From Polyangium mundeleinium (GTDB lineage Bacteria > Myxococcota_A > Polyangia > Polyangiales > Polyangiaceae), in NCBI RefSeq assembly GCF_028369105.1, contig NZ_JAQNDO010000001.1, positions 1,907,711 to 1,971,710 of the forward strand: DNA of 64,000 nt, read 5' to 3'. The notes below the pieces were generated by a model. It saw only the letters and a program-made list of their open reading frames with translations, was not told the origin of the DNA and did no database searches. Of the stretch, positions 48,485 through 50,887 are shown piece by piece. Numbering within the stretch: the first letter of the stretch is position 1; the number at the start of each line of letters is the position of its first letter. The position numbers and the translations under genes were made by a program.

Positions 48485-50887
48485 CTACCGATTGTCCTGC
48501 TCGAACACGGGGTAGAGCAGGTGTGGTCTGCGTCGATCCGAAAATGCCTTGAGATCCTGCTCGTAAAGCGCGACGAGGCGTGGCAGGTCTTCGCCGCGGA
48601 TGAGCGCCTCGTGGACACGGGCGTTTCCAAGCAGGGTCAAGAGGCCGGAGGGTTTCCATTCCTCGGGGTGGAGCCTGCGCAAAACGACCGCAATCGCGAG
48701 GCCCACGCGGACGGGCTCGATCTTCGCGGGATCGGTGACGTCGAGCGCGACGCCTTCGCAAGGCACGCCGGCGTGCGTGCTCGACGCGGGGGTGAAGCGC
48801 ACGGGGGAGAAGCGCACGCCGGGGAGGCCAAAACGCGCGAGCTCGGCGGCGAGGCGCGCGCCGGAGAGGAACGGCGCGCCCACGCGCTCGAAGGGCCTGT
48901 CGGTGCCGCGCCCGACGCTGACGTTCGTCAATTCGAGCACGCCCACGCCGGGATACAGGAGTGCCTCGGTCACGCTGCGCAGATTGGGCGAGGGGTTCAC
49001 CCAGGGGAGGCCGGTTTTGTCGAATCGGAAGGTACGATCCCAGCCTTCGAGCGGCACGACGTGGAGATCGGCGCCGAGCTTTTTCTCCGCGTCGAAGAGC
49101 CGCGCGAGCTCGCCGACGGTCATGCCGTGGCGCACGGGGATCGAATGGTACGCGACGAACGAAGCGCGCCCGGGATCGAGGAGCGGGCCCTCCAGCGCCA
49201 TTCCGCCGAGCGGGTTCGGTCGATCGAGGACGACGAAGCGGAGGCGGCGTTTCGCTGCCTCTTCGAGGGCATATCCCATCGTGCTGATGTACGTGTAAAA
49301 CCGGGTGCCCGCGTCCTGCACGTCGAAGACGAGGGTGTCGAGGCCGGCGAGCATGGCGTCCGTGGGGCGGCGATCCGCGCCGTAGAGGCTATGGATGGGC
49401 AAGCCGGTGCGGGCGTCTTTTCCGCCGGGGACGAGGGCGTCCTTGTCGGCGCCGAGGCCGTGCTCGGGGCTGAAGATGGCTTTGAGCTCGAACGATTTCG
49501 AGGCGGCGAGGACGTCGATCGTGCGCTCGCCGCGCGCGTCCTTGCCCGTGTGGTTCGTGATGAGGCCGATCTTGCGGCCCGCGAGGACGTCGAACCCGCG
49601 CGCGGCGAGGACGTCGAGGCCCACGCGGACGCGGGCCGCGGGCGGGTTTTGGGGGATCGCTGCCGCGGCATTCGCCACGTCGCGGCGGAGGCGCGCGGCG
49701 TCGCCTTTGCCGTCGGGATGGAGGCGGCTCGCGAGCAGGATGACGGCGTCGCCGCGTCGGACGTCGAGCCAGAACGCGGTGCCCGTGAACCCGGTATGCC
49801 CGATCCCGCCGAAGAGCGAGCCGAGGGCGAGGCTACGCGATGAAGGTTTGTCGGGGCTGCCTTCAGGGAGGGGCAAGGGGAGGAGTTCGGTCATCGCGCG
49901 GACGGACGTTTTCGAGAGGACACGGCGGCCCTCGAATTCGCCGCCGCCGAGGAGCATGCGGACGAAGCGGCCGAGGTCGTCGGCGGTGGAGAAGAGCCCC
50001 GCATGTCCGGCCACGCCGCCGAGCGCGCGGGCCCGCGGATCGTGGACCTCACCGACGAGCAGTTTGTCCTGGGCCCGTTCGGTGGGGGCCGCGCGCGCGG
50101 CGAGCCGAGGCCCGGGGCGGAAGGTGGTGTCCTTCATGCCGAGGGGCTCGAAGAGGTTTTTCGTGGCGAACACGTCGAGGGGCTCGCCCGCGGCGCGACG
50201 GACGATTTCGCCGAGGAGGATGTACCCGAGGTCGCTGTAGACGTGGGCCTCGCCGGGGGTGTGGAGGAGCTTGGTTTTTTGAATGCGAGCGAGGGCGCGG
50301 GCTTCGCCGTCCGCGTACGAGGAGATCGCATCCCCGGCAGGGAGGCCGGAGGTGTGGAGCAGGAGGTGGGTGAGGGTGACGCGCTCGCGGTCGTCGCCGG
50401 TGAAATCGGGGAGCCATTTCTGCGCGGGATCGTCGAGGCGCAAGGCGTTGCGTTCGGCGAGGAGGAGGATCGAGCTCGCTGTGGCCATGGGCTTGGTGAG
50501 GCTGGCGAGGTCGAAGATGGTGCCCTCGGCCATCGGCGAGGGAGAAGGCTCCTTTGCGCGGAGGCCATAGGCTTTGCGGAGGACGACGTGGCGCGCTTGG
50601 ACGACGAGGAGAACGGCGCCCGGGACCTCGCCGCGATCGATGGCACCGCGGACAGCTGCGTCGAGGCGGGCTTCGGCGTCGGGCGGGAAGGTGGGCAGGG
50701 CGGATGCGGGGGCGGATGCGGATGCGGATGCGGATGCGGATGCGGGAAGGGTGGCGGAAGCAGGAGCGGAAGCGATAGCGGAAGCGGAGGCGGTTGCGGT
50801 GAGCCGGTTCGCCTCGGGGCGCGGAGGGTCGGCGCAGGCGGCGCACAGGGTGAGCGCGAGGGCGAGGCGAGACCGCGGGACGACCAT
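48485..50887 (-). CDS. fusion lipoprotein: class-C beta-lactamase-fold domain (AmiE-like) plus DUF1343/NamZ-like exo-beta-N-acetylmuramidase domain
   Basis: Lipobox LCAAC. SxxK motif FDLASLTKPM with YSDLGY (YxN-like) and HTG. C-terminal half matches DUF1343 (GLITNHTG...FSPEHG...). Confidence 0.75.
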   Translation of the reverse strand: MVVPRSRLALALTLCAACADPPRPEANRLTATASASAIASAPASATLPASASASASASAPASALPTFPPDAEARLDAAVRGAIDRGEVPGAVLLVVQARHVVLRKAYGLRAKEPSPSPMAEGTIFDLASLTKPMATASSILLLAERNALRLDDPAQKWLPDFTGDDRERVTLTHLLLHTSGLPAGDAISSYADGEARALARIQKTKLLHTPGEAHVYSDLGYILLGEIVRRAAGEPLDVFATKNLFEPLGMKDTTFRPGPRLAARAAPTERAQDKLLVGEVHDPRARALGGVAGHAGLFSTADDLGRFVRMLLGGGEFEGRRVLSKTSVRAMTELLPLPLPEGSPDKPSSRSLALGSLFGGIGHTGFTGTAFWLDVRRGDAVILLASRLHPDGKGDAARLRRDVANAAAAIPQNPPAARVRVGLDVLAARGFDVLAGRKIGLITNHTGKDARGERTIDVLAASKSFELKAIFSPEHGLGADKDALVPGGKDARTGLPIHSLYGADRRPTDAMLAGLDTLVFDVQDAGTRFYTYISTMGYALEEAAKRRLRFVVLDRPNPLGGMALEGPLLDPGRASFVAYHSIPVRHGMTVGELARLFDAEKKLGADLHVVPLEGWDRTFRFDKTGLPWVNPSPNLRSVTEALLYPGVGVLELTNVSVGRGTDRPFERVGAPFLSGARLAAELARFGLPGVRFSPVRFTPASSTHAGVPCEGVALDVTDPAKIEPVRVGLAIAVVLRRLHPEEWKPSGLLTLLGNARVHEALIRGEDLPRLVALYEQDLKAFSDRRRPHLLYPVFEQDNR
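50702..50746 (-). repeat. hexanucleotide microsatellite (ggatgc)n, about 7 units, in-frame within the linker of 48485..50887
   Basis: Directly visible. Encodes the (AS)n linker after the signal peptide. Confidence 0.85.

Follow-up and report, generated by a model that had tools for sequence, protein, structure and literature searches.

One of the closest described systems is that of Bacillus subtilis, in which NagZ, AmiE, and NamZ act in that order on peptidoglycan glycan chains, from their non-reducing ends; NamZ works after the other two and requires a terminal N-acetylmuramic acid (MurNAc) that is free of peptide (PMC8054146). We retrieved the B. subtilis murQ-murR-murP-amiE-nagZ-namZ locus by following the YbbD/NagZ sequence in an alignment from the Protein Data Bank (PDB) to the exact protein and from there to its contig. 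AmiE and Escherichia coli PBP4B are orthologues, since they are 53% identical and both genes follow murP in a murQ operon. Here we analyzed a 64-kb stretch of Polyangium mundeleinium DNA (the window), in which one gene joins an AmiE-like domain of the S12 beta-lactamase fold to a NamZ domain (S12-NamZ). A preliminary description of this DNA had compared the gene with separate, neighboring amiE and namZ genes of Bacillus. They are indeed separate and belong to one operon, but nagZ lies between them. On balance we favor the reading that the Polyangium protein is exported, probably lipid-anchored, and combines two enzymes that would dismantle the glycan ends of peptidoglycan in two steps.

The S12-NamZ coding sequence and its two halves

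The gene (48485..50887, minus strand) is a single open reading frame (ORF) of 800 amino acids plus stop, with an ATG start and neither an internal stop nor a frameshift, and the Polyangium sorediatum protein matches it from end to end with 92% identity. In a Pfam search three domains scored above their gathering scores: Beta-lactamase (PF00144; E 4e-66, 223.9 bits, far over the gathering score), NamZ_N (PF07075; E 1.4e-79, 266.6 bits versus a gathering cut-off of 26.9), and NamZ_C (PF20732; E 1.5e-42, 146.4 bits versus a cut-off of 25). Because of the single ORF, the Pfam domains, and the end-to-end match, a frameshift or assembly artefact was ruled out. The preliminary description was therefore right that an AmiE-like domain and NamZ (DUF1343) are fused in one protein: no stop or frameshift separates the halves, and the C-terminal half is DUF1343. 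Conservation was scored over 107 homologues with 51-93% identity, and the catalytic residues of both halves were invariant in all of them. The AlphaFold model of the fusion protein had a predicted local distance difference test score (pLDDT) of 88.8 and a predicted template modelling score (pTM) of 0.63. In the linker, the pLDDT fell to 66 at residues 411-420, and the alignment with B. subtilis NamZ (BsNamZ) began as early as residue 404. The features of the gene are collected in Table 1.

Table 1. Positions of the S12-NamZ gene, its parts and its upstream border in the window (aa, amino acids)
Feature	Position	Strand	Basis
Complete coding sequence, S12-NamZ fusion protein (800 aa plus stop)	48485..50887	-	ORF, Pfam, P. 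sorediatum alignment
TAA stop of upstream Uma2-like gene (50896-50898) and GGAAGGGG Shine-Dalgarno-like stretch right before ATG	50888..50898	-	Read from sequence
Signal peptide with putative lipobox L-C-A-A-C18 (aa 1-18), Cys18 predicted to be lipidated	50834..50887	-	Cys18 conservation
Ala/Ser/Pro-rich disordered tether (aa 19-68)	50684..50833	-	AlphaFold pLDDT, composition
Degenerate period-6 repeat tract with perfect (GCGGAT)5 core at 50712-50741, encoding (AS)n	50700..50799	.	Tandem Repeats Finder, exact positions
S12 beta-lactamase-fold serine hydrolase domain, AmiE/PBP4B type (aa 75-403)	49679..50665	-	Pfam, NCBIfam, BLASTP, tree
Motif 1, S129-L-T-K132 (SxxK), catalytic	50492..50503	-	S129 and K132 invariant in 107 homologues
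Motif 2, Y217-S-D219	50231..50239	-	Y217 and D219 invariant in 107 homologues
Motif 3, H364-T-G366	49790..49798	-	Invariant in 107 homologues; GHTG common to AmiE and PBP4B
Interdomain linker and N-terminal lead-in of NamZ module (aa 404-439)	49571..49678	-	pLDDT, BsNamZ alignment
NamZ_N catalytic Rossmann-like domain (aa 440-639), including P474-E475-H476-G477	48971..49570	-	Pfam, BsNamZ alignment
E475 codon, counterpart of BsNamZ Glu92	49463-49465	-	BsNamZ alignment
NamZ_C auxiliary domain (aa 643-792), including G659-R660-G661-T662	48512..48961	-	Pfam, BsNamZ alignment
R660 codon, counterpart of BsNamZ Arg279	48908-48910	-	BsNamZ alignment

The C-terminal half aligned with BsNamZ along 396 aa at 43% identity (E 5e-113). 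Glu92 and Arg279 of BsNamZ, which were proposed as catalytic or active-site residues (PMC8054146), correspond to E475 in the PEHG motif and R660 in the GRGT motif, and both were invariant in the 107 homologues. Moreover, superposition of the predicted structure on crystal structure 4k05 (DUF1343) gave a target TM-score of 0.92 and a root-mean-square deviation of 2.2 Å. This identity and the retained Glu92 and Arg279 confirmed that the half is NamZ. By every sequence and structure criterion applied it belongs to glycoside hydrolase family 171 (GH171), and muramidase activity is predicted for it.

The N-terminal half was assigned by comparison within the S12 families. Among NCBIfam models PBP4B ranked first (137 bits), followed by AmpH (97.9 bits versus a cut-off of 266), and bla_class_C gave 56.6 bits versus a cut-off of 415. 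BLASTP gave the same order, with 143 bits for B. subtilis AmiE (30% identity over 365 aa), 146 bits for E. coli PBP4B (29%), 78 bits for E. coli AmpH, and 59 bits for E. coli AmpC. The half has the motifs SxTK, VYSD(L/I)GY, GEVHD, GHAGLFS, and GHTG(F/W)TGT in common with AmiE; its second active-site motif reads Y-S-D, as in the other fused domains, AmiE, and PBP4B, whereas it is Y-S-N in AmpH and Y-A-N in AmpC. In a neighbor-joining tree, which like the score comparison drew on a small sample of S12 families, all NamZ-fused S12 domains formed one clade, sister to AmiE plus PBP4B. Scores, motif, and tree thus uphold the label AmiE-like at the level of the clade. By these comparisons the S12 half is a sister subfamily of AmiE/PBP4B, not an AmiE orthologue, and amidase activity would be its expected function. 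Membership in the class C beta-lactamases, AmpH, or the DD-peptidases was rejected on the scores and on Y-S-D in place of Y-x-N.

A DD-peptidase activity was nevertheless weighed, in which the S12 domain would be a DD-carboxypeptidase or endopeptidase that trims or un-crosslinks stem peptides and another amidase would denude the glycan before NamZ acts. The E. coli AmiE orthologue is annotated as penicillin binding protein 4B, with a DD-carboxypeptidase activity cited for it (Vega and Ayala 2006, via PMC5061867), AmpH, an endopeptidase/carboxypeptidase, is the second-best NCBIfam match at 98 bits, and two S12 paralogues in one gene cluster could share out tasks. We consider this activity unlikely, as the domain is far closer to AmiE/PBP4B (143-146 bits) than to AmpH (78 bits) and has the Y-S-D motif where AmpH has Y-S-N, and a DD-peptidase could not supply the peptide-free MurNAc that NamZ needs (PMC8054146). 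Moreover, in Brevibacillus and in the triple fusion described below, the NamZ-linked S12 domain is the only one fused or adjacent to both glycosidases, the stand-alone S12 gene of the triple-fusion locus lying about 4 kb off.

Structure comparison pointed in another direction. The best solved-structure matches of the N-terminal half were the family VIII carboxylesterase 4ivi (EstU1; E 1e-29) and EstG (7u1b/7uda), with TM-scores of about 0.70-0.72, and EstG is described as a beta-lactamase-fold esterase required for cell envelope integrity (bioRxiv 10.1101/2022.04.12.488081). The half could accordingly be an esterase or acyl-hydrolase of the family VIII carboxylesterase or Caulobacter EstG type, which might remove O-acetyl or ester decorations that block an exo-muramidase. 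Because of these structural matches we keep esterase activity as a minor rival, albeit a very unlikely one. The PDB ranking is biased, since no AmiE or PBP4B structure has been solved; the sequence scores with AmiE and PBP4B exceed those of any PDB entry, BLAST and HMMER bits being only roughly comparable; and the recurrent fusion and linkage with NagZ, NamZ, and MurQ indicates muropeptide chemistry.

Distribution, fusions, and gene neighborhoods in relatives

The same three domains were present in all of the best 120 database matches. A genome scan matched at least 593 species genomes, and the best 80 matches all spanned both halves; they came from Acidobacteriota (the majority), Planctomycetota, Verrucomicrobiota, Polyangiaceae, Methylomirabilota/Rokubacteria, and some Proteobacteria. 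A 201-aa query across the domain junction retrieved at least 105 of the 50%-identity clusters (E <=1e-30), most of them matched through the junction in one stretch. One protein of 4331 aa (P0349) was matched by this query in 16 separate stretches, the best covering query residues 83-147 around HTGFTGT. Two further S12-NamZ variants, P0390 (1171 aa) and P0474 (1805 aa), carry long N-terminal FG-GAP/beta-propeller extensions, possibly binding or anchoring modules. The Polyangium proteins are named 'exo-beta-N-acetylmuramidase NamZ domain-containing protein' by NCBI and 'YbbC (DUF1343)/CubicO group peptidase' by JGI. The DDPept-DUF1343 architecture appeared already in a 2008 domain survey (PMC2605481), the account of NamZ family distribution mentions neither Myxococcota nor fusions (PMC8054146), and no paper characterizing an S12-NamZ fusion was found in the literature searched. 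The S12-NamZ fusion is thus not rare; it is a widespread, known, annotated, and biochemically uncharacterized architecture, of which the window gene is an ordinary member. Its interest lies at the level of the family, in the Rosetta-stone link of S12 to NagZ and NamZ and in a probable MurNAc-salvage cluster of SSS-family symporter, kinase, and MurQ that occurs in abundant soil phyla.

The two domains were found fused in both orders and within a triple fusion. The reverse order, NamZ_N-NamZ_C-Beta-lactamase, is encoded by an 859-aa ORF of Brevibacillus laterosporus B9 (NZ_CP011076.1, locus L084, 6701-9280, plus strand), for which database versions have 805-808 aa. After it come a two-domain GH3 gene of the NagZ type and a divergent polysaccharide deacetylase, and the S12 domain of the fusion is the sole one found in the B. 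laterosporus NagZ/NamZ cluster. This order is rare: it was seen in three clusters from B. laterosporus and in a single metagenome protein (P0245). The triple fusion, GH3_N-GH3_C-Beta-lactamase-NamZ_N-NamZ_C, has 1349 aa (P0472 and P0496; L089 8001-12050 and L090 2172-6221, both plus strand) and was found on contigs of two samples (Logan ERR15232725 and ERR15232717); its domain order is the published reaction order of NagZ, AmiE, and NamZ. An SSF symporter and an M14 peptidase belong to its operon; a CarboxypepD_reg protein is encoded nearby, and a stand-alone beta-lactamase-fold (S12) gene lies about 4 kb away. Furthermore, GH3-Beta-lactamase (NagZ-S12) fusions divergently adjoin the S12-NamZ fusion in two Acidobacteriota loci. 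GH3-S12 or stand-alone S12 genes lie beside the fusion, near MurQ and MurA, in Acidobacteriota (L031 6883-9789, L027 ~7000-9800, and L056 7245-8567, all minus strand).

We then counted genes within 10 kb of the fusion in 80 related loci, or in 82 when two Polyangium loci were added. MurQ (TIGR00274; 348 bits, above the cut-off) was near the fusion in 30 of the 80 loci, an SSS-family symporter in 26, a NagK/BadF-type kinase in 17, and MurA in 13, and a NagZ-type GH3 was near it in 12 of the 82. A typical cluster reads LysR / kinase-MurQ-SSS-NagZ-[S12-NamZ]. In Pirellulales a separate, stand-alone NamZ paralogue lies directly 3' of the fusion (L008 7208-8395, L009 12088-13563, and L012 12315-13619, all plus strand). 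Long tblastn matches there, considered as further triple fusions, were rejected because they consist of the fusion followed by this paralogue. The pairing of fusion and second NamZ recalls the NamZ1/NamZ2 specialization of Tannerella.

These neighborhoods also bear on what the NamZ module releases. GH171 members vary in product specificity (bioRxiv 10.1101/2021.12.02.470905), and the module could be an exo-disaccharidase of the TfNamZ1 type that releases N-acetylglucosamine-MurNAc (GlcNAc-MurNAc) and needs no NagZ partner, in keeping with the lack of NagZ in the window and with the second Pirellulales NamZ, which suggests specialization. The 43% identity to BsNamZ, which releases the monosaccharide, makes this improbable, as does NagZ adjoining or being fused to the architecture in many relatives; an AmiE-type amidase works on terminal MurNAc, which likewise matches monosaccharide release.

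No AmiE-like gene was found at a Paenibacillus plasmid NamZ locus. Haloarchaeal plasmids (Halorussus, Haladaptatus, Halosolutus, Natrononativus, and others) carry NamZ/DUF1343 homologues with 38-42% identity, one beside an annotated nagZ. Haloarchaea are not known to make murein, and these genes may reflect scavenging of bacterial cell walls.

Export, tether, and setting in Polyangium

The N-terminus of the fusion protein consists of MVVPRSR (n-region), LALALTL (h-region), and C-A-A-C18 (lipobox). Cys18 was at least 90% conserved in a 16-sequence alignment, in which orthologues had cleaner lipoboxes (IVGC, ASGC, HAGC, and ASAC). A relaxed lipobox was present in 56 of the best 120 homologues. 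Ordinary signal peptides are visible in many of the remaining ones, so that export appears to hold for the whole family. Support for export of the fusion protein, as had been proposed, comes from the signal peptide, the conservation of Cys18, and the disorder of residues 1-62. The further proposal of a lipoprotein is made plausible by the conservation of Cys18; lipidation there is rated likely rather than proven because the Cys at position -3 of this protein's lipobox is atypical. The window and P. sorediatum also differ by a 6-bp indel in the hydrophobic core of the signal peptide (~50846-50851).

The tether comprises 18 Ala, 10 Ser, and 8 Pro. Residues 14-62 had an AlphaFold pLDDT below 50, and tether length differed among orthologues. 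An in-frame repeat encoding (AS)n after the lipobox had been described, and we found (AS)n to be part of this A/S/P-rich tether. The unit count of that description, (ggatgc)7, was incorrect: GGATGC occurs six times, five consecutively and once nearby. In the GCGGAT register the perfect five-unit run occupies 50712-50741, inside a period-6 tract with 74% matches (Tandem Repeats Finder). The suggested variability in length was borne out between species: the window is longer than P. sorediatum by 24 bp, exactly four units, and other Polyangium orthologues in the 16-sequence alignment also differ at this site, which together support slippage by whole units between species. Since the hexamer units are in frame, only the length of the tether changes and the gene cannot be switched off; a role of the microsatellite as a phase-variation switch was therefore ruled out.

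Some myxobacteria are predators, and the protein could be a surface-exposed weapon specialized for digesting prey walls, its reach being tuned by repeat-driven changes of the tether. It is both exported and tethered, the Polyangium gene lies outside any recycling operon, and the tether repeat differs between species. Against this, tether variation was seen between species only and in frame, and the architecture is commonest in Acidobacteriota, Planctomycetota, and Verrucomicrobiota, where it is linked to MurQ salvage genes. These phyla are not generally regarded as predatory, which argues against predation as the defining use of the architecture. The exo-enzymes of the NagZ-AmiE-NamZ system, moreover, degrade intact peptidoglycan poorly on their own (PMC8054146, PMC10653849). 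Taken together, we regard use as a predation weapon as quite unlikely.

In the window, the ATG of the fusion lies 8 bp after the TAA of a same-strand, upstream Uma2-like gene, a gap that suggests co-transcription or translational coupling of the two. Genes for a PhoD phosphatase and an OmpA-family protein, together with hypothetical genes, make up the other neighbors. PhoD lies upstream of the fusion in P. sorediatum and P. aurulentum too, and downstream come a methyltransferase, a PPC-domain protein, and a kinase. The syntenic P. aurulentum locus is without the Uma2 gene, which is thus an insertion specific to the lineage, placed between PhoD and the fusion. Scanning the surroundings of the gene for promoters and terminators was uninformative: the one promoter-like site lies downstream of it, and terminator-like sites occurred at the level of chance.

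Other features of the window were recorded as well. The C-terminus of the Uma2-family gene product (50896-51720, minus strand; putative restriction endonuclease-like) contains (AEQERTR)n, encoded by a 21-bp tandem repeat at 50958-51030 (3.4 copies, 92% matches). Three paralogues of ~1310-1360 aa (8578-12504 and 15632-19597, plus strand; 37843-41928, minus strand) have the architecture Pkinase-AAA_16(-TPR) of STAND-like serine/threonine kinases. A 1504-aa protein with fungalysin M36 metallopeptidase, PA, and PKD domains (57537-62051, plus strand), syntenic in P. sorediatum, is probably a secreted protease.

A two-step model and known systems

In the model that we favor, the protein would be exported by the Sec pathway and then acylated at Cys18, and the disordered tether of about 50 residues would keep both catalytic modules off the membrane. 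The S12 domain, with Ser129 as nucleophile and Lys132, Tyr217, and His364-Thr-Gly, would cut the lactyl-L-Ala amide at a non-reducing-end MurNAc and so take off the stem peptide. The GH171 NamZ module (Glu475 and Arg660) would next hydrolyze the peptide-free terminal MurNAc off the chain, and each following MurNAc would have to be uncovered by a separate NagZ-type beta-N-acetylglucosaminidase. MurNAc and free peptides would be the products and go to salvage or catabolism, and the substrate may be own wall fragments, necromass, or prey. The two-step model is supported by the fusions in both orders and in triple form, the linkage to MurQ genes, and the need of NamZ for peptide-free MurNAc.

Several findings weigh against the model. 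The 137 bits with PBP4B (PRK03642) fell short of the equivalog cut-off of 385, and because of this miss and the 30% identity to AmiE, the activity of the sister subfamily as an amidase can only be presumed. The nearest solved structures of the N-terminal half are esterases, not amidases, and no enzyme assay on any S12-NamZ member was found in the literature searched. Some clusters hold two S12 paralogues, one NagZ-fused or alone and one NamZ-fused, that are about equally far from AmiE/PBP4B, with scores of 139-176 bits against these. This suggests that their activities may differ, which lowers our confidence in the exact bond cleaved. Only positions -1 and -2 of the lipobox fit [LVI][ASTVI][GAS]C, the Cys at -3 being atypical. 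Homologues of MurQ, the SSS symporter, the NagK-like kinase, MurA, and NagZ were all lacking in the 64-kb window, so that no operon-based argument can be made for this locus, and the isolated, non-recycling context is conserved in Polyangium. Lastly, a fixed arrangement of the two domains that channels substrate is unsupported: with a pTM of 0.63 we make no claim of fixed interdomain geometry or substrate channelling.

If the model is true, the architecture provides the amidase step that NamZ-type enzymes need, as NamZ acts on peptide-free MurNAc only, and gives many abundant soil phyla a compact exported two-step module for recycling or scavenging cell walls. Bacterial cell walls form a large pool of organic nitrogen and carbon in soil. 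The fusions in both orders and in triple form are clean Rosetta-stone evidence that 'penicillin-binding proteins' of the AmiE/PBP4B type work with NagZ and NamZ, and they also bear on the unsettled role of E. coli PBP4B. More tentatively, and with somewhat less than even confidence, S12-NamZ, GH3-S12, and GH3-S12-NamZ may mark a widespread peptidoglycan-scavenging route in Acidobacteriota, Planctomycetota, Verrucomicrobiota, and Polyangiaceae from soil and water. Along this route MurNAc would pass from exported exo-enzymes of an assembly-line kind to an SSS-family symporter, a BadF/NagK-type kinase, and MurQ. In that route the NamZ-fused S12 clade might differ from AmiE in specificity, acting for example on crosslinked or anhydro-terminated muropeptides, which would explain the two S12 paralogues of some clusters.

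Compared with known systems, the C-terminal half resembles BsNamZ (YbbC), the founding member of GH171, in its NamZ_N/NamZ_C module, in Glu92 and Arg279, and in its secreted location (PMC8054146). BsNamZ is a stand-alone protein of 414 aa encoded by the last gene of its operon, whereas the window NamZ is the C-terminal part of 800 aa and has no operon partners near. AmiE and PBP4B, the nearest characterized relatives of the N-terminal half, have the S12 fold and the motifs SxTK, VYSD-GY, GEVHD, GHAGLFS, and GHTGxTGT in common with it, but are only 29-30% identical to it, and the half sits in its own NamZ-fused sister clade. EstU1 (4ivi) and EstG (7u1b) are esterases without association with NamZ, NagZ, or MurQ, and their sequence scores are below those of AmiE and PBP4B. 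The NagZ-AmiE-NamZ system of B. subtilis has the same types of enzyme, and its second and third steps stand in the same logical order in the fusion; they are separate there and covalently joined here, and the window is without the partners. Uptake in relatives apparently relies on an SSS-family symporter and a NagK/BadF-type kinase, in contrast to the MurP phosphotransferase system of B. subtilis. The P. sorediatum homologue has identical architecture and conserved synteny, and the window tether differs from it by four extra Ala-Ser units. NamZ1 and NamZ2 of Tannerella forsythia are likewise exported GH171 enzymes that act on peptide-free glycan ends to acquire MurNAc, and the amidase that denudes their substrate has been described as unidentified (bioRxiv 10.1101/2021.12.02.470905). 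Both stand alone and carry type I signal peptides, whereas the window protein has a candidate amidase built in.

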